Positions 3,383 through 62,776 of a stretch of 64,000 bases of DNA are shown here, piece after piece; within the stretch, counting starts at the first letter, position 1, and each line of letters begins with the position of its first letter. Both the position numbers and the translations under genes were made by a program. Under the pieces are notes generated by a model. It made no database searches and was not told the origin of the DNA. It saw nothing but the letters and a program-made list of their open reading frames with translations. The DNA is from a virus: the IMG/VR virus record IMGVR_UViG_3300032173_000002, positions 36,373 through 100,372 of that record. The stretch is one strand, 5' to 3'.

Positions 3383-4699
3383 TTGATTCATGCAAGGGAT
3401 TTTCTTGAGGATCGAATAGTAAGGGAGCAGAGCTATACCACAGGAGTGGATTTATCCAAGAAGACTGTTTTGGTTTATGATTTTGGTCTTTTCTCTGGAA
3501 TAGCGGAGCGCCTCGGTAGAAGCTTCGGAAAGGTCTATTACCATGTTCCGTGGGAGGACGCCTATCCCAGGGCTGGAAAGGCCCTCGTTGGGCGAGGTCT
3601 TCCTGGAGTGGAGAAGGCTTTGGAGTTTTGGCCTTTGGTGGACAAAGTGGACCTGATTTTCTTCCCGGATACTCATTGCTCAGCACTGGCAAGACACCTG
3701 AAGGATCTAGGTTATCCTGTTGCTGCTGCCTTGGAGGCGGAGAGTTTGGAACTGGACAGGGCTTTCGGTAGGCAAGTTCAGAAAGAGATGGGTTTGGACT
3801 ACCAAAAGACAGATCGAGTAATTGGTGTCTCCAACTTGCTAAAGTATCTTGCAGACTATCCAGATGGTGGAAAGTATGTGAAGATTGATATATTCCGGGG
3901 AGAAGTGGAAACATTTCAGCACATTGACTTACCTACCAGCAAAGGGATTTTGGATGTGTTTACCGCAGATATGGGACCCGCAGCAGAGACCATTCCCTTT
4001 TTAGTGGAGGAGAAGGTATCTGGTGTGGAAGGGGGTCTAGATACCATCGTTTGGGATGGGGAGACTCTTTCTCCTACTTGGTTTAGCTACCTTGATGAAA
4101 ATGCCTATATTGCTAAGACGATGGATTTCAAAGAAGTTCCTGACCCGTTTCGGAAAGTTCACGAAGGGTTAGCTCCGGTATTCCGTAAATGGGGCACTAA
4201 GTTTTTCTTCTCCACTGAGATTATTTATGGAAAGAGTCATAGTAAGGCATATCTGATAGATTATACTCTGCGGAACGCAAATCCCTGTATCTCTACTTTA
4301 CAAGCGGAGGTGATCAAGAACTTCCCGGAGCTGATTTGGGCTATGGGTACTGGGGAGAGAGTGGATCCCTGGATCGAGGCTCCATATTGTGGTAGTGTGA
4401 TACTCAACTCTCGGTGGTTCATAAATAACTGGGGACATGTGAAGGTGGATCCCTCTGTGAAGCCTTTTGTTACTTTTCGCTTTCACTATCGGGATAAGGA
4501 CGGAGAGCCGTATCGGTTGCCTGGCTACTCCTCGATGGTGGCTTTTGCTTTGGCTTGGGGGGACTCGGTAGAAGAGGTGATTGCCCTTCTGGAGGAAAGG
4601 CAAGCAAAGGTGAGCTTCCCTTGTCAGGAGAAGTCTTTTCCCAGGGACGAGATAATGAAGGGTTTAGCTGCTTTTGAGAAGGAAGGTATCGAATTCTAA
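3383..4699 (+). CDS. ATP-grasp (PurD-like) ligase with leader
   Basis: AESLELDRAFGRQV, YVKID, FLVEEKVSGVE, YLIDYTLR motifs; begins MIHARDFLEDRIVRE. Confidence 0.65.
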   Translation: MIHARDFLEDRIVREQSYTTGVDLSKKTVLVYDFGLFSGIAERLGRSFGKVYYHVPWEDAYPRAGKALVGRGLPGVEKALEFWPLVDKVDLIFFPDTHCSALARHLKDLGYPVAAALEAESLELDRAFGRQVQKEMGLDYQKTDRVIGVSNLLKYLADYPDGGKYVKIDIFRGEVETFQHIDLPTSKGILDVFTADMGPAAETIPFLVEEKVSGVEGGLDTIVWDGETLSPTWFSYLDENAYIAKTMDFKEVPDPFRKVHEGLAPVFRKWGTKFFFSTEIIYGKSHSKAYLIDYTLRNANPCISTLQAEVIKNFPELIWAMGTGERVDPWIEAPYCGSVILNSRWFINNWGHVKVDPSVKPFVTFRFHYRDKDGEPYRLPGYSSMVAFALAWGDSVEEVIALLEERQAKVSFPCQEKSFPRDEIMKGLAAFEKEGIEF

Positions 4700-33952: not shown

Positions 33953-34117
33953 TCACCTCCTTTCTTGGGTTTCCTCCTTGGGGGCCTTCTGCCCCCTCCG
34001 CTTTGGTCTTGAGGTTAAGTATCTCCCGTAACAACGGCGGCAGTATTGCTTGCCATCCGCAATCCAGACAGTTCCATTTTCAATGCTTCTCTTGCATGTA
34101 TAACAGATGTATTCCAT
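33953..34117 (-). CDS. 54-aa Zn-finger protein (not in the ORF track)
   Basis: MEYICYTCKR...DGKQYCRRCY...; SD GAGGAGGAG. Confidence 0.6.
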   Translation of the reverse strand: MEYICYTCKRSIENGTVWIADGKQYCRRCYGRYLTSRPKRRGQKAPKEETQERR

Positions 34118-34128
34118 TTTGCTCCTCC

Positions 34129-34281
34129 TCATTTCTGTAACTCTCTCAGATTTTTCAGGACGAAGTACCTTATCTGTCCTGAAACCGACCTATTGGCTTC
34201 ATTTGCAGCCTTCTTTAGGGCTTGGTAAACTGAAAGTGGTAGTAATACTGCCACCAGTTTCTTGTCTGATCTCTTCTTCAC
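34129..34281 (-). CDS. 50-aa Arc / ribbon-helix-helix DNA-binding protein (not in the ORF track)
   Basis: GTG start; KKLVAVLLPLSVYQALKKAANEANRSVSGQIRYFV. Confidence 0.6.
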   Translation of the reverse strand: MKKRSDKKLVAVLLPLSVYQALKKAANEANRSVSGQIRYFVLKNLRELQK

Positions 34282-34289
34282 TAATCATT

Positions 34290-34478
34290 TCACCTCCTTT
34301 CCCTTTCTTCTTCATAAATCATGTCATTCCTGATTTGTCTGGCTGTCTCCTTAGCCAGATCATCCTGAGCGTCCTCGAAGGCTTGGCGACGAAGTTCTGC
34401 TAACTCGCAGTCTGTATCAGCATGAGCTCTCGCTATGATGCTGTCAATCTCTGCTGTTGGACAACCAAGCTCAAGCAT
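34290..34478 (-). CDS. Hypothetical protein, possibly 5'-truncated
   Basis: Frame stays open upstream into the hairpin element; no good SD at the ATG. Confidence 0.4.
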   Translation of the reverse strand: MLELGCPTAEIDSIIARAHADTDCELAELRRQAFEDAQDDLAKETARQIRNDMIYEEERERR

Positions 34479-34584
34479 TCGGTGAACGATAACCGCGGAA
34501 ATGCATTCCTTAAATCGGTTAGGTTCACCGGTAAGGCGTAGGAATTCCGCCTTGGGGGCTTGTGGCCCCCGGTTTAGTTAAAGG

Positions 34585-35016
34585 TTAGAAAACACAGAAA
34601 CGATTGGGATTCATTCGCTTCTGCTCCGACGCCACTCGCTCATATCCTGCGGCGGGGATCATTGCAACAACCTGCCCGGGATATGCTTGAGCGGCGATGA
34701 TACTACCAACGATGACATCAGCCCCGAGGGCTAATGCCTTGTTGATGATTTCCTGACCCTCGTCATCGGGAACGAAGCGGGTTCGAACGAGAGTAAATAC
34801 GAAATCTTCAGCATATTTGTAATCAAAATCGTCTGGTGGAGGGTAAATTGGGAGAACACAGTTGGGGTATCTGTATTCTACCACCTCCTCGACCACTTCA
34901 GCGTTGATGACTTTATCCGTCTCAATGCTGATTGGCTCTGTCCACCCCGGCGCCCAGAATGTTATAGGATGTGGAGTGGCATTAAAAACACGGACTTGAT
35001 TTGGTAGGGTTTTCAT
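34585..35016 (-). CDS. Hypothetical protein
   Basis: NATPHPI N-terminal motif; SD AAGGAGG. Confidence 0.7.
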   Translation of the reverse strand: MKTLPNQVRVFNATPHPITFWAPGWTEPISIETDKVINAEVVEEVVEYRYPNCVLPIYPPPDDFDYKYAEDFVFTLVRTRFVPDDEGQEIINKALALGADVIVGSIIAAQAYPGQVVAMIPAAGYERVASEQKRMNPNRFCVF

Positions 35017-35082
35017 TTTTTCCCTCCTTGGGGGCCTTTCGGTCCCCGATTAATGGAAAGGGGGCAAAATCCCCCCCAAGAG

Positions 35083-35451
35083 CTATTCCACAAAATTGTC
35101 ACTACTAACCTTGAACCAATACCCCTGCGCGCGGGCGGGGGTATCAGCCGATCCGCGCCTAAAGTTAGTAGTGACAATTTTTATGTCACTACCGTCTATC
35201 TCGCCTTCCTGGCCGAGACAGAAGTTTACCAACCAACCATATCGCACTGTCTCATAACGAGACAGTGCGTGAGGGACGTGGGACATTTCGAGACGGCACT
35301 GCCGGTGATGCCCCTCATAGTTGAAGCTCTGCAGGCGCCTCCGACCGTCCCCGGACAGATTCTCGCGGAGCAACTTGGCCACCTCGGCTTTCACAAACTC
35401 CTCGACTTTTTCGTCGAGGTTAAAAATTTTTATTAATTCTTGCCATTTCAT
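35083..35451 (-). CDS. Hypothetical protein
   Basis: SD AAGGAGG then MKWQEL; start reassigned. Confidence 0.6.
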   Translation of the reverse strand: MKWQELIKIFNLDEKVEEFVKAEVAKLLRENLSGDGRRRLQSFNYEGHHRQCRLEMSHVPHALSRYETVRYGWLVNFCLGQEGEIDGSDIKIVTTNFRRGSADTPARAQGYWFKVSSDNFVE

Positions 35452-35467
35452 CTTCCTACCTCCTTGG

Positions 35468-36049
35468 TTAACTTCTATTCCTCTGGGAGTATCTTTTGAT
35501 CTCCCATACCGCCTCCCAATTCGGGTATTCCGCAAAGAGCCGCGAGGAGATAAACTCCTCTTGCTCCTTAGTGAGCCACACCTTTTCTTCCGGCTCACCC
35601 AACGCGGTCAAGGTGACGGAAGCGAAGATGCGCTCTTTATTTCCCTGCGCGGCCCACACGGGCCGCATAAAAAACTCCTTCAGGCCGTCCACTCCGTGTT
35701 TTGCGTAAGCGAGGTCGAGATACCCACCCTCGCCACACAGGTTCCTTGCATAGTTTTCATCGATCTCGGTGGGGACTTCCCAACCAAGACATTCTGCGAC
35801 TTCTTGCCAAATTTTTAGCATTTTCCCTCCTTCTTGCTGCTCTTCATTTTCAAGAGCAGCAAAAAGCTGATTACAAATTTCGCAACAGGGATCTTCTTCG
35901 CATACCCCTCCCACGAGTTCCCAGCCCTCCCCCACAAGATCAACAACTTCTTGGGGCGAAGAAGTTGTTTTCCACTCCCGGTCAGTTCCTGTTTCAGCTC
36001 CTCCAAGGTGAAGAAGCTTTGACACCTCAAATTCATGCTCTTTCATCAT
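35468..36049 (-). CDS. Hypothetical protein (possibly two fused ORFs)
   Basis: SD AAGGAGG; internal SD before MLKIWQE. Confidence 0.6.
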   Translation of the reverse strand: MMKEHEFEVSKLLHLGGAETGTDREWKTTSSPQEVVDLVGEGWELVGGVCEEDPCCEICNQLFAALENEEQQEGGKMLKIWQEVAECLGWEVPTEIDENYARNLCGEGGYLDLAYAKHGVDGLKEFFMRPVWAAQGNKERIFASVTLTALGEPEEKVWLTKEQEEFISSRLFAEYPNWEAVWEIKRYSQRNRS

Positions 36050-36058
36050 AATCCTCCT

Positions 36059-36259
36059 TTATTTTTCCTCATAGTCACACGGGCACTCCTCGATCTTCAT
36101 TGCCAACCGCCGTTGCGTGCTCTTCGACGGCTCACGAACAACAGCGCCGGCTCGGAACAAATCGCGGTCGTGCAGGTTCACGCGTTCAGAGACGTGAAAC
36201 GCGTGATAGTTACCGTCATAAACAAACGCCAATTCTTTACCGCAACGTGGGCAATTCAT
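36059..36259 (-). CDS. Small Zn-ribbon protein
   Basis: CPRC...CPC; SD AAGGAGG. Confidence 0.6.
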   Translation of the reverse strand: MNCPRCGKELAFVYDGNYHAFHVSERVNLHDRDLFRAGAVVREPSKSTQRRLAMKIEECPCDYEEK

Positions 36260-36744
36260 TTTTCCCTCCTTGGGGCCTTCCGACTCCGGCGTTGCTCAAG
36301 TTGGCAAGGCAAGGAAGTTTCGTCGACTTCTTGCCATCTATTTTTGCAAACTGGGCAGGCGAACAAATCATCCCGCCCACCCAGAATTTCATCGGACTGC
36401 GGAATACAAATACTTCCGCAGCTCTGGCAAATTACTTTATATTCCTTTTCAGCTCCCTTGAAGATAATGCTATTCATTATCTCCAGAGATTCCTTTTTGA
36501 CAAGCGCACTTTCAGAACGCTCGTCAGGGGTTTGGTTCGGTCGGTAGCAGGCATCGGCATACCGATTATATGCCAATGCAAGCCGCTTAGCCTGCTCCTT
36601 GCTCGAGCAGGCAATAATATCGTCAACTGCTTCCGCATCCCTCTTGGCTTTTGCCAAGGTGGGGTAAACAATGGCCGGCGTGGTCTGGAGTTTGTGAAAC
36701 TCAGACCACGGAATTATTACATAGAAGTTGCTATCTTTCTTCAT
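36256..36744 (-). CDS. Hypothetical protein with Zn ribbon
   Basis: CQSC...CPVC; ATGA overlap. Confidence 0.6.
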   Translation of the reverse strand: MKKDSNFYVIIPWSEFHKLQTTPAIVYPTLAKAKRDAEAVDDIIACSSKEQAKRLALAYNRYADACYRPNQTPDERSESALVKKESLEIMNSIIFKGAEKEYKVICQSCGSICIPQSDEILGGRDDLFACPVCKNRWQEVDETSLPCQLEQRRSRKAPRREK

Positions 36745-37202
36745 GATTCTCTCCTTTCTTTGGTCTTCAGATACTCAAAATGTGCCGCCAGATGCTTAAG
36801 GAACTCGCGACACAGCCGCAGATGGACTTGCCGCTCCAGGTCAGGATCCGGCGGGTAGTTCTTGGAGAGTTCTGCAACGATCGCTTTGGCATCGTTGCGC
36901 AGTCCTTGAAGCTCTGCCACCAGCTCGCGCCCGATGCCATCTCTGGCCCAGTTAGTCTGCGCCGAGTCGCGCCCAACGCGGAACTTGAGAAAATCGATAA
37001 TATCAGCGACAGAAAAGGTTTGGTGAGCAAGAATTTGAAGCGACCGCATTTGATTCTCGAATAGTTCGAAAGCTTGGCGGTCGTCTTTCATTTTTAGGTC
37101 TGCCCACACTCTATGCAGCGCATCGGCATATCTCGATGCGCTATCAAGATTGTTAAACCGGGCAATCGCCTGATTTAACTCAATTCTTTCTATGCAATTC
37201 AT
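36741..37202 (-). CDS. CRISPR type III-D small subunit (Cas11)-like protein, orphan
   Basis: QMRSL...S...IIDFLKFRVGRD...W...IGRELVAEL...LCREFLKHL...FEY pattern; SD AAGGAGG before the ATG at 37202. Confidence 0.6.
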   Translation of the reverse strand: MNCIERIELNQAIARFNNLDSASRYADALHRVWADLKMKDDRQAFELFENQMRSLQILAHQTFSVADIIDFLKFRVGRDSAQTNWARDGIGRELVAELQGLRNDAKAIVAELSKNYPPDPDLERQVHLRLCREFLKHLAAHFEYLKTKERRES

Positions 37203-37306
37203 GATCTCCTCCTTGGGGTCGCAAGGCCCCGGTTTGAAGTTAAGTGACACTTACGGGTCGGGGATGTAAATCTGGTTTGGGATGCTGTTCCTACAGCGTA
37301 TACATA

Positions 37307-37651
37307 TCAGCTTCTTAGGCATGATCTTATTTCTTTAACGATGTCGGCTGCTTCTTTGGTGGTGCAACCGGTAACGATTCTGGCCAGTCTCTTTGGCGAG
37401 AACCGTTTACCACCAAATAGCCAGTAAATCTCCATTACCTCGCCAGGGGAGGCCAATATTAGCTCTACGAGTTGCTTCGCCTCCTCGGAGAGACTGTTCA
37501 ATGTCTCCTTCCTCAGCAGTATCGTCTCTGGGGTCTCCTGGACGACTAACTGAGGATACTTGTGTGGCTGTTCGGACTCCAATGGTGCTGGGCTAAAGAC
37601 ACTCCACCATACTTCAGCTGCACTAACAATGCCGGAGCCTTCTCTCATCAT
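37307..37651 (-). CDS. Possible sigma-factor C-terminal / HTH-like regulator
   Basis: TPETILL...LNSLSEEAKQLVELIL..P pattern. Confidence 0.4.
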   Translation of the reverse strand: MMREGSGIVSAAEVWWSVFSPAPLESEQPHKYPQLVVQETPETILLRKETLNSLSEEAKQLVELILASPGEVMEIYWLFGGKRFSPKRLARIVTGCTTKEAADIVKEIRSCLRS

Positions 37652-37765
37652 TTTCTCACCTCCTTTCTCTGAGGAATATATAAAATTATATAAAAAATAT
37701 AAATCCCTGAAAAGGACGAGATCTCCCAACTTTTGGGAATTTAGGGAGAGCTTGACTTATTTCCT

Positions 37766-37805
37766 AACTATTTTCATTTATTTTCAACTATTTTCAACTA
37801 TTTTC
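37766..37805. repeat. Four tandem 10-mers (consensus AACTATTTTC) in the divergent control region
   Basis: AACTATTTTC ATTTATTTTC AACTATTTTC AACTATTTTC. Confidence 0.85.
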
Positions 37806-37877
37806 TTGTGTTTTCGCTTATACTCATATTTCATGCTCCAATCCTTGTCCGATTAGCCCAGAAAAGGGTTAAGATAA

Positions 37878-37896
37878 AAAAGGGGTTATAATAGAA
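37878..37896 (+). promoter_or_regulatory. Putative promoter motif AAAAGGGGTTATAATAGAA
   Basis: Related copies at 39720, 45902, 47083 and 55721, each shortly before an RBS. Confidence 0.55.
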
Positions 37897-37904
37897 GCAG
37901 GGAG

Positions 37905-38360
37905 GTGAACAGAATGGAGACAAGAAAGAGAAGAAAGTTCGACCTAAATAACAGCCCCCAGCCACAGCAAGAGCAAGATGCACCACCTTCTGCACCGGCT
38001 CCTCCCTATGATCGAGTTCTGATCCGGGGAGGGAAGTTAGCCTTCGCCGACGGCCACAAAGAGGATGTGCCAGGGTATCTTGCTCGTAAGACAAACTTGA
38101 AAATCTCCGGCGGACTATGGTGCTGGCATTGTGACCGATCCATAGGTGGCCACAAAGAGACAGGTTTCCCATGCGAGACTTGTGTCTTTGTCCGGTTTGT
38201 TCCGGGACAATATCCTCCAGGATTGGCTGATCAGATAAGGGTGACCCTCATCGTTGATGGGTGGACGAATTACTTCGCTATCTCTTCCTCTCAGGGTGAG
38301 TGGACAGTGTATCAAGTTTATGGTATCTCTAAACCCGTCAAAAAGGACCACGAGATATAG
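37905..38360 (+). CDS. Hypothetical protein
   Basis: CWHC...CETC; SD GGGAGG. Confidence 0.6.
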   Translation: MNRMETRKRRKFDLNNSPQPQQEQDAPPSAPAPPYDRVLIRGGKLAFADGHKEDVPGYLARKTNLKISGGLWCWHCDRSIGGHKETGFPCETCVFVRFVPGQYPPGLADQIRVTLIVDGWTNYFAISSSQGEWTVYQVYGISKPVKKDHEI

Positions 38361-39706
38361 AGACTAAAGTTTCTATAAAAATCATAGATCCTGTTCTCAC
38401 GCAAGTCGAACAAGGCGCTGCTCTAATCTCTCCTTGTCTGTCTTATCCAGCTTACTATTGGCGTCAGGGACCATACAGGCGGGAGAAAGTCAGATATACA
38501 AAGCACTTGATTCACAATAAGCACTTCTGGACGGGTCTGGTTCCTCGCGTAAAACGATTCTGCGACCAGCAGGGGCTACCTATCCAGGTGAAAGAGAGTA
38601 GCCCCCAGGACAAACTCCCTGCTACTTTCCCTCCCAAGATGATAGGAATCGCCCTGAGACCTGATCAGTTGGCCCTAATTGAGCGAGTAATCACCAACCT
38701 TCGTGGGGTGATCCATGCCCCGACAGGATCCGGGAAGACAGCGTTAGCAACGGGAGTAATCAAATGCTTCCCCGGTGCTAAAACTCTGTTTCTCTGTCAT
38801 ACAAAGACTCTGATAGATCAGACGGCTTCGATGTTTCGCGAGCAGGGCCTTGATGTCTCCCTGGTGGTAGAGGGAAAAATGAATCTCTCCGGGGAGGTGG
38901 TTGTAGCTACTCATCAATCTTTCTGTAAGATCAAAGATAAAACCCTTCCATTTCAGATTGTGATAGTAGATGAATGTCATCACTTGTCCAACCCTTCTGT
39001 TACCTATGCCGAAATACTCTCCAAGCTTCTTTCCCCTATCCGCATTGGACTTACTGCTACAGTTCCTTCCTCTCTTGAGTCTATACTGACTATGGAAGGG
39101 TTTCTTGGACCTGTGGTTGGTGAGCTAACTGTAGAGGAGGGGATTGACTTGGGGATTTTGGCAGCTCCTCGAATTCAGCTAATGAGGGTTCCGAAAGACC
39201 ATGAGGCATCCGATCTGAGGCGCTACTCGGATATTTATGATTGCTGTGTAGTTGAGAATGGAGCCAGGAATCGGCTGATAACAAGGATAGCCAGGGGGTT
39301 GGTCAAGAGTGGGAGATCAGTGCTTATTCTTGTAACCAAGATCGAGCATGGAAAGAGGCTGCTGGAAACCGGAGCAATGCTGGGATTAGAGATGGAGTTC
39401 ATTCAGGGAGCTACTGAGCGGGATGCGAGGATTCGTCTTCAATCCGCTTTACAGAACAAACGAATAAAGTGCGTGGTATCAACCGCAGTATGGAGGGAGG
39501 GAGTCAATATACCTTCTCTGGATTGTGTTATCAATGCCTGCGGAGGGAAGTCCGAGATTATGACTCTTCAGGCAATTGGAAGAGGGCTTCGCACCACAGA
39601 AGGTAAAAGAGATGTTCTTATTGTGGACTTCTTAGATCCCCACAGATATTTAGCGGAACATGCGATACAGCGCATCAGTCTCTATGTGGAGAATGGTTGG
39701 CTGTGA
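38357..39706 (+). CDS. SF2 DNA helicase (UvsW-like); possible ATA start
   Basis: PTGSGKT, DECHH, GLTAT, QAIGRGLR; frame open 50 codons upstream of the TTG at 38507. Confidence 0.85.
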   Translation: METKVSIKIIDPVLTQVEQGAALISPCLSYPAYYWRQGPYRREKVRYTKHLIHNKHFWTGLVPRVKRFCDQQGLPIQVKESSPQDKLPATFPPKMIGIALRPDQLALIERVITNLRGVIHAPTGSGKTALATGVIKCFPGAKTLFLCHTKTLIDQTASMFREQGLDVSLVVEGKMNLSGEVVVATHQSFCKIKDKTLPFQIVIVDECHHLSNPSVTYAEILSKLLSPIRIGLTATVPSSLESILTMEGFLGPVVGELTVEEGIDLGILAAPRIQLMRVPKDHEASDLRRYSDIYDCCVVENGARNRLITRIARGLVKSGRSVLILVTKIEHGKRLLETGAMLGLEMEFIQGATERDARIRLQSALQNKRIKCVVSTAVWREGVNIPSLDCVINACGGKSEIMTLQAIGRGLRTTEGKRDVLIVDFLDPHRYLAEHAIQRISLYVENGWL

Positions 39707-39768: not shown

Positions 39769-40836
39769 ATGTTACAGGGAAAAACAATCCAGGAGTTAGC
39801 AGCTGAAGTACAAAGGAGGGAGGCGGAGAAGCGGGATTTTGTTACAGATACTCGTTTGATGGATGCTGTGGGAACCGCAGAGGAAACATCGGTACTTCTC
39901 CGGGTCTCTGATATTGACTACTGGGAGGAGTTTAGACCGACTCCTGTATTTCACCAGCAGGTATCCGATACTCTTGGAATACCAAAGAAGTATTATGATA
40001 GGATGATTCAAGAGGCCCCTGAACTTTGGGCTAAGAATGTGAATCACTGGCTGCATGAAGACCCAAAGAGGCGCATGGTGAGGACTCTGGGCGGGGATGC
40101 CAGAGCCTTCTTGTCTCCTCGGTATCGGAGACTGGACAACTTTGCTTTGATGGAGGCCGTCCTCCCCGTCTTGGCAAAGACAGATATGATAGTAAGATCT
40201 GCCGAGATTACCGAGTCCCGACTTTGGTTGAAGGTTAGCTTCCCCTCCAAACAGATGGAAGTCAAGAAAGGAGATATCATTGAAGTGGGCTTTGCTCTTT
40301 CCAATTCAGAGGTAGGACTGGGAGCGGTTAGAGTGGAGCCGTTGCTACTGAGATTGGTTTGTATGAACGGAGCTATTGTGAATGATGCTGCGATCAGGCA
40401 ACTCCATATTGGCCGAAGCACAGGCGGGGATTCCGATATTGTGGAGGAGCTTATCTCCGACCGAACAATGGCCTTGGAGGATGCTGCTTTCTGGAACAAG
40501 GTTAGAGATGTTGTAGTTGCGTTTCTTAAGGACGGAAGCAAGGACGCCTTGATGAGCCGCATTGAGCAAGCGATGGGTAGGGAAGTCAAGAAACCAGAAG
40601 CCTCTATTAAGGTTTTGGCAAAGACTCACGGCCTGGCGGACAAGGAGGCTGATTCAATCCTTGGTTATTTGGTTTCTGGCGGCGAGCTTTCCGCTTGGGG
40701 CCTGAGTCAAGCAGTATCCAGGTTTTCCCAGGATATTCCCAACTATGACAGGGCCACAGATCTGGAGTACTTGGCAGGGAATATCATTACCCTCCCTGCA
40801 AGGGACTGGAAAGTGTTGGAGGAGGCTATTGTATGA
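39769..40836 (+). CDS. DUF932-like protein
   Basis: RAFLS.RY..LDN, NSEVG, RLVCMNG motifs. Confidence 0.75.
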   Translation: MLQGKTIQELAAEVQRREAEKRDFVTDTRLMDAVGTAEETSVLLRVSDIDYWEEFRPTPVFHQQVSDTLGIPKKYYDRMIQEAPELWAKNVNHWLHEDPKRRMVRTLGGDARAFLSPRYRRLDNFALMEAVLPVLAKTDMIVRSAEITESRLWLKVSFPSKQMEVKKGDIIEVGFALSNSEVGLGAVRVEPLLLRLVCMNGAIVNDAAIRQLHIGRSTGGDSDIVEELISDRTMALEDAAFWNKVRDVVVAFLKDGSKDALMSRIEQAMGREVKKPEASIKVLAKTHGLADKEADSILGYLVSGGELSAWGLSQAVSRFSQDIPNYDRATDLEYLAGNIITLPARDWKVLEEAIV

Positions 40837-58033: not shown

Positions 58034-58334
58034 CTGGGCTTGGGAATATGTAAAAAAGCATGATAGCGCTGTTTCGTCTATGCTGGATGCTGGAATGAGT
58101 TTGGAGGAGATTATCGTTGCTCTTTCCAGGGAAAGGGAGCAAACTCATCGTCAGCTACTGAAGCTTATTAGCCTTGTTCCCAAGAAGGTGATTTCGCCAG
58201 ACGGGAAGGTTTATGTCTGGCATTGTCCAGATGAGTTGATTCCTGTTATTGGTGACCTGCTAAAGATGGGGCCAGTTATAGTGGAGTCCGTTATAGGGGA
58301 GGAGGTAAAGTTAGATGAGGCGAAGGAGGTTTGA
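58023..58334 (+). CDS. Hypothetical protein
   Basis: Operon context; start reassigned. Confidence 0.55.
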   Translation: MEDNWAWEYVKKHDSAVSSMLDAGMSLEEIIVALSREREQTHRQLLKLISLVPKKVISPDGKVYVWHCPDELIPVIGDLLKMGPVIVESVIGEEVKLDEAKEV

Positions 58335-59358
58335 AGATGTTTTGGGAGAAGAGGTATCTCGTGTAAGGGATTCATTTCGGGATACAGGCTCAGTTTCTGA
58401 GAAGAGAGAGGAGTTTCGTAGTGGTGTCTTATCTACTGGCTCAACTCTCCTCGATCTGGCTATATCGGGGAAGAGGATACGAGGAGGTGGAGTTCCGGGT
58501 GGGATTATAATGGAAATTTATGGTCCCTATGCTTCCGGGAAGACAGCCATTTTGGCTGAGATATGTGCTTCCGCCCAGAGAAACGGGGGCAAAGTTAGAT
58601 TTCTCGACCCAGAGGCTCGTTTGGATCAAGAGTATGCCAGGATCTATGGAGTCAGCCTTTCCGAGGAAGACTACTATCGGCCTAATACAGTTTCTGAAGC
58701 ATTTGCTCTGATTCAAGATTGGGAGCCTGGTAATTCAAATACAATCAATGTGATAGCTACCGATTCCCTTGCCGCTTTGTCCACTGAGATGGAACTGGAT
58801 AAAGGGGATAAGATGGGAATGAGGCGGGCAAAGGAGTTCTCGGAGGGTTTTAGAAAGACTGCTCGCCTGATTGCTAAGAATAACTGGATTGTTGCTTGCA
58901 CTAATCAAGTTCGTGAGGGGGAGTATGGAGAGACGACTCCAGGTGGTTTTGCAATTCCTTTTTATTCCTCTCTGCGAATACGAGTGGGGCAAACGGGGAA
59001 GATAGAGAGGAAGACCAGAATATCTTCTGGGAAGGAGGTCTCTAAGGTAATTGGGATTGAGAGTCTATGTTATATTCGCAAATCTACTGTAGATGATCCT
59101 TTCCGTGAGGCTCCAATTTGGATTGTGTTTGGTTATGGTATTGATGATGTCCGTGGCAATCTTCAGTGGCTTAAGGATATGGAGAAGAGTTCAGTCTATG
59201 TTGCTCCTGATGGTAAGGGATTTCAGGGGATGGAGCAGGCGATCTCTCATGTTGAGGGGAATTCTCTTCAGGAGAAGCTAAGGGAGCAGGTGATCAGCCT
59301 GTGGGAGGAAGTTGAGGCCAAGTTTGTTGCGGATCGAAAACCGAAGATTAGGTTTTAA
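58315..59358 (+). CDS. recA: RecA / UvsX-like recombinase
   Basis: STGS..LD.A, EIYGPYASGKT, DPE, DSLAAL, NQVR, TTPGG. Confidence 0.9.
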   Translation: MRRRRFEDVLGEEVSRVRDSFRDTGSVSEKREEFRSGVLSTGSTLLDLAISGKRIRGGGVPGGIIMEIYGPYASGKTAILAEICASAQRNGGKVRFLDPEARLDQEYARIYGVSLSEEDYYRPNTVSEAFALIQDWEPGNSNTINVIATDSLAALSTEMELDKGDKMGMRRAKEFSEGFRKTARLIAKNNWIVACTNQVREGEYGETTPGGFAIPFYSSLRIRVGQTGKIERKTRISSGKEVSKVIGIESLCYIRKSTVDDPFREAPIWIVFGYGIDDVRGNLQWLKDMEKSSVYVAPDGKGFQGMEQAISHVEGNSLQEKLREQVISLWEEVEAKFVADRKPKIRF

Positions 59359-59507
59359 TGGGGATGGCGGAGTGACGAAGAGTCAGGGGAGATCATGGTA
59401 ATTGGCGATTTTGGCCCCCTCCCGTTGCAGCCATGAGCATAATCGGGCGTTGGTGAACTGTTGCCGGGCAGTGAATCCGACCCGCCATCCTTGTATCAAG
59501 GAAAGGG

Positions 59508-60389
59508 ATGCTTTTGAAATCTAAAGTCGTTCTGATAGTTGATTGTAATTGTATTTGCCATATGTCTTACTATGTTTTTCGGGACTTATCTTATGGGGGA
59601 TTAGGAACTGGAGTTATTTTTGGCTTCCTCCGGCAAGTGTTTCAGTTGGCCTCAAGATTTGAGTCCAATTTTTTCATCTTTTGCTGGGATCACCCCCATC
59701 TGATTCGCAGGGATATGTATCCTGATTACAAGAAGTCTCGTCGTGAGAGGAGAACTCCTGAGCAGAAGATAATGGACAGAGAGGCTTTTAGACAGTTTTC
59801 GGAAGTCAGGGAGACAGTTTTGCCTTCGTTGGGGTTTAGAAACATATTTTGGGAGGACGGATACGAGGCAGATGATTTGATCCATGCTGCGGTAGAGACT
59901 GTTTTAGAGAAGGGCCTCCCTGCTATGGTGGTGAGTACTGATGAGGACCTATTCCAACTGCTGGATAGAGCGAGTATGTTTAATCCTCGGCATAAATACA
60001 TCTATACGAAAGATTGTTTAATGAAGAAGTGGAGGGTGACTCCTGAGCAATGGGTGGATGTTAAAGCCATGTCAGGTTGTCCCTCTGATGGGGTAGAGGG
60101 ATTGGAAGGGGTTGGGCTGAAGAGTGCTATAAAGTACCTGCTGGGTGAGACGAGTCGCATGGGCTATCAGACGATAGCTCGGATTCGGTCAGATGAAGGG
60201 AGAAAGATTATCCGTAGAAATCTGGAATTGGTTAGCCTAATGGGAGAGGATTTAGCTCCTCTCCCTTTGGTGTGGGAGGAGAATTTTTCTCGCAAAGTGT
60301 TTTTAGATATTTTTGACGGGATGAATTTTCGCTCCTTCTTGTCTCCAGAGATGTTCCCCAAGTGGGAGAGGCTATTTAACTTGAACTGA
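59508..60389 (+). CDS. 5'-3' exonuclease / RNase H (FEN family)
   Basis: VDCN, YK.SR, EADD, DEDLFQL, G..SD...G..GVG.KSA. Confidence 0.9.
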   Translation: MLLKSKVVLIVDCNCICHMSYYVFRDLSYGGLGTGVIFGFLRQVFQLASRFESNFFIFCWDHPHLIRRDMYPDYKKSRRERRTPEQKIMDREAFRQFSEVRETVLPSLGFRNIFWEDGYEADDLIHAAVETVLEKGLPAMVVSTDEDLFQLLDRASMFNPRHKYIYTKDCLMKKWRVTPEQWVDVKAMSGCPSDGVEGLEGVGLKSAIKYLLGETSRMGYQTIARIRSDEGRKIIRRNLELVSLMGEDLAPLPLVWEENFSRKVFLDIFDGMNFRSFLSPEMFPKWERLFNLN

Positions 60390-60400
60390 GGAGGCTTCGG

Positions 60401-60610
60401 ATGCAAGATTACAGGGTAAATCAGTTCTCTCGTGATTATCTTGTGGGCTTTAAGGACGGGGCTCAAGCTGTGGTGAATATGATTTACCGGGAGTGTTTTG
60501 GGGGTAAGGGTAATCTGTCTAACCCGAATCTTCTCCCATCCGACTTATCAGGGAGAATCAAACTCTTAATCAGAAGAATCAGTAACTCTAAGGAGGATGG
60601 AAATGAATGA
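60401..60610 (+). CDS. Hypothetical protein
   Basis: SD GAGGAGG. Confidence 0.5.
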   Translation: MQDYRVNQFSRDYLVGFKDGAQAVVNMIYRECFGGKGNLSNPNLLPSDLSGRIKLLIRRISNSKEDGNE

Positions 60611-60872
60611 TAACACTGTTGCGGCCCAGCTTTTATCTTTCCAGCTTTTATCTTTGAAAGAGATCGGTTTCGATCAGGAGTTCTGTATGAGTACGGTGGA
60701 AAAGCTTGCCAGCTTTGAAAGGGATAGTAATACGATAGGAGACCTTCTGAAGAAGGTCAGTGTCTCCTTATCTTCTCTGGATGCTAAGGAAGCATTCCTC
60801 ATGGGATTTTTCACATGTGGTTTCCTATGCTTTGTACAGGGGTTAGGCGAAGAAGGCAAAAAACAGCAATGA
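60597..60872 (+). CDS. Hypothetical protein
   Basis: SD AAGGAGG. Confidence 0.5.
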   Translation: MEMNDNTVAAQLLSFQLLSLKEIGFDQEFCMSTVEKLASFERDSNTIGDLLKKVSVSLSSLDAKEAFLMGFFTCGFLCFVQGLGEEGKKQQ

Positions 60873-61444
60873 AGCCAGGAGGGGGGAAGAACAAGGGATC
60901 GAGTTTTGAAAGACAGGTCTGTCGAATCCTGACCGAGTGGATTACAGGAAAACCGAGGCCGGAGATATTTTGGCGGACTGCCACCAGTGGTGGTAAGTTT
61001 ACAGTGGATGCTAAATCTGGTATTCGAGGGAAAATGCCTGGGGATGTCATGGCAATAGCCGGCGGGGGTGGGTCTTGGTTTGCACCACCAGATGGGGCAT
61101 TTGTTATTGAATGTAAGAGTGTCGGTAGGCTGGACTTGATGGGAATAGTTTTCCGTAAGGGTGATCTTTATTCCTGGTGGACAAAGCTAGTCCAATTGGC
61201 TAAGGGCTATTCTATTCGTCCGCTCTTGATAGCCCATCAGAAAGGGAGACCTACTTTGGTGATGTTCGATGGGGAGTTCTGGAGGCTTTTTACGGATTAT
61301 GGTGGGGGATACCCACATGGTACGATCAGGGCACGAGTTTCTCCCTCTGATGAAGCGGTTATTTGTGTTTTGGATGACTGGCTGAAGTTTTTTGATCCAG
61401 CGACAATAAAGCTTTTCCTTAGGGTTACTCTTGGGAGGAGGTGA
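60869..61444 (+). CDS. Holliday junction resolvase (PD-(D/E)xK)
   Basis: KGSSFER, R...SGG, GD, IECK. Confidence 0.8.
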   Translation: MKPGGGKNKGSSFERQVCRILTEWITGKPRPEIFWRTATSGGKFTVDAKSGIRGKMPGDVMAIAGGGGSWFAPPDGAFVIECKSVGRLDLMGIVFRKGDLYSWWTKLVQLAKGYSIRPLLIAHQKGRPTLVMFDGEFWRLFTDYGGGYPHGTIRARVSPSDEAVICVLDDWLKFFDPATIKLFLRVTLGRR

Positions 61445-61501
61445 TGCAAGTAGGTGTTTGTAGTTTTTGAGTTATGTTGTTCCAATAGAAAGGGAGGTCA
61501 G

Positions 61502-61712
61502 TATGGACGCAAAGCAGATTTACTTGGACGGAATTAGGAGGGTAAGACAGGATTCTCACCAGTTGCTTTCTTCTGGAGGAGTGATACGACCTGAGCAGGT
61601 GCTTCAGAGATTGGTAATGCTGTGTGATGCAATTACGGCTATTCCTAGCGAGGAAGAGGAATCGCAGGAATCTACAGCAAAGGGTTCTAGGCGTCGTAGG
61701 ATGGATGAATGA
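61502..61712 (+). CDS. Hypothetical protein (start approximate)
   Basis: SD GGGAGG before MDAKQ. Confidence 0.45.
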
Positions 61713-61720
61713 GCTAGGCC

Positions 61721-62776
61721 GTGCTAACTAAGGTTAAAATTACTAACTTCCAGTCTCACCATAGCACAGAGCTTGACTTCCATCCAGGAGTAAATGTCGT
61801 AGTTGGTAAGAGCAATGATGGGAAGTCTGCTCTAATTAGAGCTTTGCTATGGCTATTTGAAAACCGACCGCTTGGGTTCCGATTCCATACCAAGGGGAGG
61901 AAGGGACCTACCGTTGTAGAATTGACGACACCGGAGGGGGTGGTTACTCTATCTAAAACGGATCGGTCCGCTGAGTATTCTCTGGACGGAGAGAAGTGGA
62001 GTAGCCCTGGTGGTGGTGTTCCAGAACAGATCTCGTCGCTATTGAATCTTTCTGAGGTGAATGTCCAGCGACAGTTTGATCCTCATTTTCTTATCTGCTC
62101 CCCACCTGGAGAGGTGGGGAGGGTAATCAATCAAATTACTAGGATCGAGAAAGTAGATGGCTGGATCTCGGATACTACATCTAGCATCAATGATACAAAT
62201 CGGGAGATTCATATTTTACAATTCCAATTGCAGGATGTGAGGGGGAAACTTGCTTTCCTTTCTGCATTGAGGTTGGATGAGCTAAAGGAAGATCTGGAGG
62301 AGGTGAAGAAGATAGAGGAGAGGATTGCTAGTCTTGACTTGGAGGCTGAGCAAATCTCCTCTTCAGTTGATAGGATTTCCGAATTAAGGAAGGAGATGAG
62401 GGATAGCAAGGAGGAGATAGAACGCCTTTCTCCTGGGCTGGAACAAATTCGGGAACTAGCAGAGGAGATAGGGGAACTAAATTCTGTGACTACCTTGCTG
62501 GAGAGGTTTGTTTGCATAACAAAGATGGCGGATCGTCTTGAAATGGATTTGCATCCTCTTGTCGAAGGAGTCAAGAAACTGGATGGTCTAGTAAGGGAGG
62601 AAAGTTTACTTGTTGAGGTCTGTGATTTGCGGTATAGAATGAGAAGGGAAGGAGAGGAGCTGACTCTTGTTGCAAGGGAGCTTGGGGACCAGCTTAGAGC
62701 AGTCAGGAAATGCCCTTTATGCTTGTCTGATCTGGATGAAAAGCAGATAGAAAGGATTGAGAGAGGTTATGCATAG
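61721..62776 (+). CDS. SbcC / gp46-like recombination ATPase
   Basis: NFQSH, G.SN.GKS, coiled coil, CPLC hook. Confidence 0.85.
   Translation: MLTKVKITNFQSHHSTELDFHPGVNVVVGKSNDGKSALIRALLWLFENRPLGFRFHTKGRKGPTVVELTTPEGVVTLSKTDRSAEYSLDGEKWSSPGGGVPEQISSLLNLSEVNVQRQFDPHFLICSPPGEVGRVINQITRIEKVDGWISDTTSSINDTNREIHILQFQLQDVRGKLAFLSALRLDELKEDLEEVKKIEERIASLDLEAEQISSSVDRISELRKEMRDSKEEIERLSPGLEQIRELAEEIGELNSVTTLLERFVCITKMADRLEMDLHPLVEGVKKLDGLVREESLLVEVCDLRYRMRREGEELTLVARELGDQLRAVRKCPLCLSDLDEKQIERIERGYA

Follow-up and report, generated by a model that had tools for sequence, protein, structure and literature searches.

A 153-amino acid (aa) protein encoded on the minus strand of a phage genome is homologous to Cas11, which forms the small subunit of type III-D effector complexes in CRISPR (short palindromic repeats, clustered and regularly interspaced) immunity, and there is good support for reading it as an orphan III-D Cas11. 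The gene lies within a window (the whole 64,000-nucleotide stretch of DNA analyzed here) that corresponds to bases 36373-100372 of the 100,372-bp IMG/VR virus record IMGVR_UViG_3300032173_000002. An initial annotation, made from the letters of this DNA alone, had placed a 153-aa frame for a type III-D Cas11-like protein at 36741-37202; these coordinates are exact, and the assignment is borne out by sequence, by the operon context of the homologs, and by fold. By analogy with viral Cas homologs of known activity, we regard the gene as a credible candidate inhibitor of type III immunity that derives from a Cas protein.

36741..37202, minus strand: orphan cas11, type III-D small-subunit homolog, 153 aa plus stop (reading frame, homologs, operon slot, fusion match and fold)

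Homologs occupy the Cas11 slot of type III-D operons

Curated libraries returned nothing usable for the phage protein, whether Pfam (best match PqqD, E 0.039), NCBIfam (none) or PHROGs (best E 0.15), and neither the protein nor two family profiles, searched against PDB sequences, gave a meaningful match. Homologs were found in metagenomic data: 79 proteins, 41-69% identical, the named ones from Anaerolineae and Chloroflexus metagenome-assembled genomes (MAGs), and an exhaustive HMMER search yielded 115 representatives. Of the wider family, five small members were scanned, and the NCBIfam Cas11 models matched none of them; a model for this Cas11 clade appears to be missing from these libraries.

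Genomic context was read from nine genome loci and one metagenome contig (L010). In an Anaerolineae MAG (L001), the homolog (3501-3938), which is approximately 54% identical to the phage protein, is preceded by Cas10 (with a PF22335 palm domain), a Cas7-like RAMP protein, and Csx10 (TIGR02674, E 2.5e-40), and is followed by a 149-aa protein, a 358-aa protein, two Csx7 RAMPs, a 180-aa protein, a TIGR03986 RAMP, and a CARF protein. When the twelve L001 proteins were used as tblastn queries, the same gene order was recovered in the loci long enough to display it, with the homolog always between Csx10 and the 149-aa protein. Seven Chloroflexota-type genome loci within L001-L008 share the slot after csx10; the L008 locus stops inside the homolog, so that the Csx10 side alone is visible there. 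As Csx10 is the signature of type III-D (PMC11026444), this position constitutes the Cas11 slot of a type III-D operon. The closest matches of the phage protein thus lie within III-D operons, as had been anticipated, and the source that they indicate is Chloroflexota.

The 149-aa neighbor (L001:3935-4384, and in the same slot in L002-L007) is itself a paralog within the family (approximately 27% identical; hhalign probability 97.7%, E 2e-12). Each operon therefore encodes two different small subunits in tandem, of which the phage protein corresponds to the first; neither of the tandem paralogs of the Chloroflexota operons matches a Pfam or NCBIfam model. A further link came from a search of 1.8 billion proteins, in which a 701-aa protein that matches both Csx7 and Csx10 (P0158) aligned, over its residues 578-692, with the phage protein at E 2.4e-5. 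Judged by its domain matches, P0158 has the architecture of the Cas7-Cas5-Cas11 fusion of type III-Dv.

At the level of residues, the III-D small-subunit motif that the initial annotation had described is present (Q51-x-R53-x-L55, S64, F71-L-K-F-R-V-G-R-D79, W85, R132-E-F-L135, and Y144) and agrees with the consensus of the family that we found. The six residues that are near-invariant in the broad family (Q51, L55, W85, G91, L130, and R132) are all kept in the phage copy, as are the arginines conserved in the close family (R53, R75, R78, and R129).

Two features of the cellular members were also noted. Four homologs (P0049, P0059, P0061, and P0064) carry a tandem GEGRV pentapeptide, in up to approximately nine copies, in the loop that joins their last two helices, a repeat absent from the phage copy. 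In addition, the same III-D operon, at 52-84% protein identity, occurs in MAGs labeled Methanotrichaceae (an archaeon; L006) and Thermogutta (Planctomycetota; L008), reflecting either horizontal spread or binning error.

The predicted fold is that of a Cas11 small subunit

The protein had been described as all-helical, and an AlphaFold2 model built with 27 homologs agrees, with six helices and no strand (mean predicted local distance difference test score 89.8; predicted template modeling score 0.84). When the model was compared with 48,161 solved chains by a search independent of Foldseek, the first match was 8bmw_A (Z 9.5 over 102 residues, root-mean-square deviation 3.2), which we take to be the III-D1 small subunit, its 121 residues being of small-subunit size. 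The second was 8s9t_A, residues 628-780 (Z 7.9 over 132 residues), and Csm2 chains, Cmr5 chains, and the Cas11 domain of Cas7-11 came further down. The structure 8BMW represents subtype III-D in the 2025 classification (PMC12669027), and 8S9T shows the III-Dv complex of Synechocystis, in which chain A ends in a C-terminal Cas11 domain. The structural comparison with Cas11, Csm2, and Cmr5 that the initial annotation had proposed was thus favorable in its top matches; the part of it that relied on Foldseek was not, as nothing significant was returned from the PDB or BFVD, with several Csm2 chains among the weak PDB rows. Because Z values below about 13 are common for helical bundles, and because Foldseek gave no significant match, the fold supports the evidence from sequence and context and is not proof alone.

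In the III-Dv complex, arginines of the Cas11 domain (R678, R706, R769, and R773 in 8S9T) lie at the RNA cleavage sites, facing the target RNA (PMC11026444). As a rough inference, with positions estimated from offsets and not from a residue-level superposition, the conserved arginines of the phage protein may be the equivalents of these residues.

The phage record contains no resident CRISPR system

The virus record is linear, lacks terminal repeats, and is 89% complete by CheckV. Its products include a tail sheath, baseplate wedge, tail fiber, head maturation protease, helicase, and DNA polymerase, as well as RecA, gp32-like and DnaB-like proteins, and the record is that of a myovirus. The replication module (39769-40836 and 58315-62776) includes a DUF932 protein, RecA (PF00154, E 1e-37), the gp32-like protein, and an SMC/AAA_23-type ATPase.

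Profiles for Csx10, RAMP proteins, and the Cas10 palm matched nowhere in the 100,372-bp record, and a repeat scan found no CRISPR array in it. When the twelve L001 operon proteins were searched against the record by tblastn, the only region matched was cas11 itself, by Cas11 and, weakly, by the 149-aa paralog; the other eleven had no match outside this region. The earlier statement that the window holds no other cas gene or array consequently extends to the entire record, and a complete type III locus elsewhere, which would have spoken against an orphan, is absent from this 89%-complete sequence. The nearer end of the record is approximately 27 kb away from the gene, which has phage structural and replication genes on its flanks. 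We conclude that it is a homolog of the Cas11 family and not a component of a resident CRISPR system.

A variant of the resident-system idea is that the gene is the remnant, or a dispersed part, of a phage-borne III-D system, the remainder having been lost by deletion or being located in genome sequence that was not assembled. The incompleteness and linearity of the record leave some room for this, given that a III-D effector operon spans approximately 10 kb. We nevertheless regard it as very improbable: in 100 kb there is no other cas gene or array; cas11 sits among unrelated small genes, on the opposite strand, with no adjoining cas remnant; csx10 and the paralog tightly flank cas11 in all seven cellular loci; and three distant sibling phages carry no cas gene at the locus.

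The phage copy is divergent and possibly mosaic

In a quick maximum-likelihood tree, the phage protein was nested inside the cellular crown group on a branch (0.83 plus 0.46) more than 10 times the median of 0.074. Its sister in this tree is P0079, which is also long-branched. Divergence is distributed unevenly along the protein, as identities between the phage and cellular proteins and among cellular pairs indicate:

Residues 1-47: 32% phage to cellular; 57% among cellular pairs
Residues 48-78: 49% phage to cellular; 82% among cellular pairs
Residues 79-116: 53% phage to cellular; 57% among cellular pairs
Residues 117-153: 77% phage to cellular; 76% among cellular pairs

Residues 1-47 alone, compared with 193 family members, gave no match even at E 10; residues 79-153 alone matched the crown group at E 1e-34. 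The alignment placed a 13-residue insertion within the first part of the phage protein. A possible replaced N-terminus had been suggested at the outset; the unmatched segment and the insertion fit an N-terminus that was remodeled as well as one that was replaced. Between residues 50 and 71, eight positions that are conserved in 23-26 of 26 aligned cellular homologs are changed in the phage protein: T50N, V52M, G54S, E56Q, T61Q, D63F, S66A, and W71F. Net charge (0) and isoelectric point (6.97) are within the cellular range and so provide no charge signature.

At the nucleotide level, gene bases 199-438 (window 36765-37004) are 77% identical over 242 nucleotides (nt) to cas11 of the Anaerolineae MAG L001, and the last 86 bases compared (window 36765-36850) are 89.5% identical to Chloroflexota cas11. 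At conserved residues, third codon positions agree with L001 in 30 of 47 cases for residues 79-148, the level seen between cellular homologs, as against 10 of 29 for residues 1-78 (p 0.018). The matching part had been described as richer in guanine plus cytosine (GC) than its surroundings, and this was confirmed, the C-terminal part being host-like:

36800..37024, minus strand: host-like GC-rich segment, approximately residues 60-134 (GC 0.578 against 0.467 for the genome); the nucleotide matches overlap it and extend past its 3' edge

This GC value stands at the 99.8th percentile of 225-nt genome windows. For residues 61-153, GC at third codon positions (GC3) is 0.60, and for residues 1-60 it is 0.45; the phage mean is 0.47, and host cas11 genes have 0.59-0.75. 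When the cut is made at residue 78, the contrast (0.46 vs 0.63) is marginal (Fisher p 0.05), and some cellular genes have a weaker trend in the same direction. The sole sequencing run containing the phage DNA is a sediment metagenome, possibly its source, with no RNA run listed; no contig from that run was placed on window 35500-38500, so there is no independent assembly check across the GC step.

Taken from the sequence, these patterns suggest that two parts of the gene may have different histories, in which (i) the back half was recently shared with Chloroflexota cas11, and (ii) the front part is much older in the phage, or has another origin.

The similarity of residues 79-153 to host DNA, in GC and in 77-90% nucleotide identity to Chloroflexota cas11, would also be expected if the gene were a recent passenger, a piece of host cas11 gained by illegitimate recombination and carried without function, as would its uniqueness among the known phages searched. 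We consider this unlikely. The frame is intact and full-length, the gene has the operon's hairpin and Shine-Dalgarno (SD) cassette and start context, it overlaps the next gene as ATGA, and the conserved core residues are kept. Further, the 5' third has a phage-like GC3 (0.45) and saturated synonymous sites, which imply long residence in the phage, or rebuilding, in that part of the gene.

The cas11 reading frame lies behind a shared initiation cassette

Translation of cas11 is assigned to an ATG at 37202 with GGAGG seven bases upstream, and the TGA stop occupies 36741-36743. A longer frame with a GTG start at 37250 is less likely, because it passes through the hairpin-SD element. The stop codon and the ATG of the next gene overlap as ATGA (36741-36744), the usual sign of translational coupling, which would link cas11 to the 162-aa gene downstream.

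37208..37237, minus strand: hairpin-SD cassette directly before the cas11 start codon (repeat family D1)
36256..36744, minus strand: 162-aa gene with a C-terminal CxxC...CxxC pair, downstream of cas11 with ATGA overlap

Repeat family D1 has five copies on the same strand between 33973 and 37237, four exact and one with a single mismatch. Its minus-strand word CCCCAAGGAGG, with a short G+C stem ahead of it, has four exact copies in 64 kb, all within 33973-37218 in the accessory operon and on its strand. The placement of cas11 directly behind a hairpin-SD cassette is thereby upheld, and the word is exclusive to this operon as far as exact matches in 64 kb are concerned. The 121-nt region upstream of cas11 folds no better than shuffled sequences (z -0.5), indicating that the cassette is a short local hairpin and not a large structure. 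One copy precedes cas11 and another precedes a 66-aa zinc-ribbon gene; these two genes also have in common a 25-nt repeat (36251-36275 and 37194-37218) that covers the SD, the start codon, and the first three codons (ATGAATTGC), suggesting that genes may have been swapped in behind a common initiation cassette.

The gene belongs to a variable accessory operon

As the initial annotation had stated, an accessory operon of the phage holds cas11 as an orphan gene. This operon is flanked by a tail fiber gene and phrog_2889 on one side and a DNA helicase gene on the other.

33953..37729, minus strand: accessory operon of approximately ten small genes (from open reading frames), cas11 second, between the plus-strand tail-fiber and helicase genes
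34129..34281, minus strand: 50-aa ribbon-helix-helix (RHH; CopG-like) gene (PF07878 RHH_5, E 6.7e-6, 26.2 bits against a cut-off of 26)
37675..37825, minus strand: AT-rich divergent intergenic region (GC 0.33-0.35) with promoter-like sites and a 10-nt tandem repeat, AACTATTTTC

Three distant sibling phages, whose helicases are 36-48% identical, have almost none of the operon genes at this locus; only the operon's first gene has a match, a weak one, in one sibling (L016; 34% identity, E 9e-9). The operon is therefore a variable accessory region. Among the neighbors of cas11, the one clear family match is the RHH gene near the promoter-distal end. It is possibly a candidate Aca-type (anti-CRISPR-associated) regulator, on the analogy of Aca14, an RHH-type regulator that serves anti-CRISPR (acr) operons (PMC13551039). 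The coupled 162-aa gene belongs to no Pfam or PHROG family, and its Atlas leads (zinc ribbon, RNase H1 N-terminal-like, and helix-turn-helix-like) are weak, none of them reaching the trust marks. The 66-aa zinc-ribbon gene has a sub-threshold Pfam match only, and the last gene of the operon encodes a 59-aa zinc-ribbon protein with a weak LIM match only.

Upstream of the operon, approximately five head-to-tail copies of the 10-nt unit AACTATTTTC (repeat family D2) span 37766-37825 and could, from their arrangement, serve as an operator or iteron-like site. Promoter-like matches occur at 37713-37685 and 37797-37770, in numbers no higher than in shuffled sequences; the former, by the first operon gene, reads TTTTCA-17-TATAAT. 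That first gene (37307-37729) probably starts at an ATG near 37651 with its own SD, GAAAGGAGGTGAG, rather than at the TTG at 37729. Within the operon, a 21-nt inverted repeat (35092-35181) has arms that are 95% complementary and 48 nt apart.

A possible second orphan lineage

The sister of the phage protein, P0079, shares with it the derived residues LAHQT-[FW]-SV. A close relative of P0079 is encoded at 1121-1513 of L010, a 2.4-kb metagenome contig of 63% GC, outside a cas operon. Its neighbors there are a 215-aa protein and an AAA_15/AAA_21 ATPase (OLD/Abi-type), in the place of Csx10 and the paralog. This one short contig is a hint that some Cas11 genes may form a lineage outside cas operons.

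Such a lineage, beside an AAA_15/AAA_21 ATPase, would be in keeping with an exapted role, in which a Cas11-fold protein serves RNA binding, regulation, or a re-tuning (as opposed to a blocking) of the host complex. The retention of the conserved arginines is also compatible with this, and the operon's role is left open by its other minus-strand genes, seven of nine being unmatched and one more sub-threshold. We find this reading doubtful, as nothing positive points to any other role, and as the simplest reason for the conservation of one half at the level of host copies is that it still has to fit host III-D partners.

The phage protein as a candidate decoy subunit

We postulate that the stand-alone III-D Cas11 homolog may act as a decoy-subunit anti-CRISPR of the AcrIB3/AcrIB4 type, a proposal by analogy that, in our judgment, stands an even chance of being correct. 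In this scheme, a cas11 gene would have been captured from a Chloroflexota-type host and would be expressed by the phage from the accessory operon. The protein would then enter, or titrate, the host Cas10-Cas7-Csx10 complex in place of the native Cas11; its conserved half would dock, and the altered helices 3-4 together with the new N-terminus would disturb the minor filament, the handling of target RNA, or the activation of Cas10. As a result, target-RNA sensing, RNA cleavage, or Cas10 signaling would be weakened. Type III immunity senses RNA, and modification of its DNA therefore offers a phage no escape from it.

Several observations agree with the decoy proposal. The Cas11 fold is kept, and the C-terminal half is as near to host Cas11 as host copies are to one another. 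Signs of retention and selection include the intact frame, the strong SD, the ATGA overlap, the conserved core residues, and the long branch. A more specific version is a chimeric decoy with a front peculiar to the phage (residues 1-78) and a half that docks (residues 79-153), the latter staying in step with the Cas11 of the current host through repeated recombination with host cas11 during infection; this version we advance only tentatively, as somewhat unlikely.

Several results weigh against a decoy. The mosaic signal consists of small counts (p 0.018 and 0.05). All of the conserved arginines are kept, and, if their equivalence to those of III-Dv holds, the protein has no obvious loss-of-function signature and is possibly a working Cas11. 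Among the other nine minus-strand operon genes scanned, seven have no Pfam or PHROG match at all, and no known anti-CRISPR or Aca gene is present. In a hunt for spacers, the ten loci were compared with the phage by short-match BLAST, which recovered cas11 itself only; similarly, a 20-kb phage stretch compared with 401 genomes of the L001 phylum matched at cas11 and in two marginal 41-50-nt matches outside arrays. No spacer match thus ties a III-D host to the phage. Finally, no homologs were found on other mobile elements in IMG/VR (by pattern scan), GenBank phages, or PLSDB plasmids, so that recurrence, which would argue for selection, is limited to the single 2.4-kb contig L010. A predicted complex of L001 Cas10, the L001 Cas11 paralog, and the phage protein, for which a control scored nearly as high, counts neither for nor against the proposal.

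Comparison with known systems

The phage protein resembles the III-D Cas11 proteins (III-D1 of Saccharolobus solfataricus, 8BMW, and the Synechocystis III-Dv Cas7-Cas5-Cas11 fusion, 8S9T) in size, all-helical fold, and family-invariant residues; its homology in sequence is to the proteins in the Cas11 slot of III-D operons and to a fused Cas11 domain. Unlike the III-D Cas11 proteins, it is encoded alone, with no cas10, cas7, csx10, or array, and it differs in its unmatched residues 1-47, the 13-residue insertion, the eight changed positions, and the long branch.

That stand-alone viral Cas homologs can inhibit CRISPR, as the initial annotation had stated, is established: AcrIB3 and AcrIB4 of Listeria phages and mobile elements are Cas5 and Cas8b homologs that assemble into a defective Cascade, and the viruses of IMG/VR have been reported to carry 358 orphan cas genes, which belong to types I, II, III, IV, and VI (Katz et al., bioRxiv 10.1101/2023.06.24.545427). 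Like AcrIB3 and AcrIB4, the phage protein is a virus-borne homolog of a class 1 effector subunit, located in a variable accessory region without an array or operon of its own; the mechanism proposed here is the one proven there. It is unrelated to them in sequence, however, being a homolog of Cas11 with RNA-sensing III-D as its putative target, whereas AcrIB3 and AcrIB4 have been assayed and act against DNA-targeting type I-B.

Some known inhibitors resemble it in its proposed target or in their origin. AcrIIIA1 of the staphylococcal phage Twillingate acts on the III-A complex at Csm2, dampens Cas10 outputs, and carries RNA fragments (PMC11662646). Action on a type III complex at the Cas11 (Csm2) position would be common to both; AcrIIIA1, however, binds Csm2, is not a Cas homolog, and targets III-A. 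AcrIII-1 and the viral Csx20 homologs are ring nucleases co-opted from CRISPR ancillary genes, some of them in operons with the RHH regulator Aca14 (PMC13551039). They are CRISPR-derived genes that viruses have turned against type III immunity, as is proposed for the phage gene, but they are enzymes that destroy the cyclic-oligoadenylate signal and not structural mimics of effector subunits. Four anti-CRISPR families have been reported against type III, none of which is a copy of an effector subunit (PMC11662646).

The kind of gene proposed here, a viral orphan cas gene acting as a decoy anti-CRISPR, is therefore already known; what would be new is the subunit (Cas11), the putative target (III-D), the mosaic, host-matched gene, and a clade for which curated libraries appear to have no model. 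That III-D Cas11 clade, with its two tandem paralogs, helps in the annotation of III-D loci. If the decoy proposal is correct, the strategy of subunit mimicry, proven for type I-B, would extend to the signaling type III complexes, and the protein would offer both a tool for switching off III-D effectors and a means of revealing the Cas11 surfaces needed for assembly and for Cas10 activation. If the chimeric version is correct as well, the gene would represent the first inhibitor of type III CRISPR immunity to derive from a Cas protein, and a counter-defense gene that tracks its target through gene conversion rather than point mutation.

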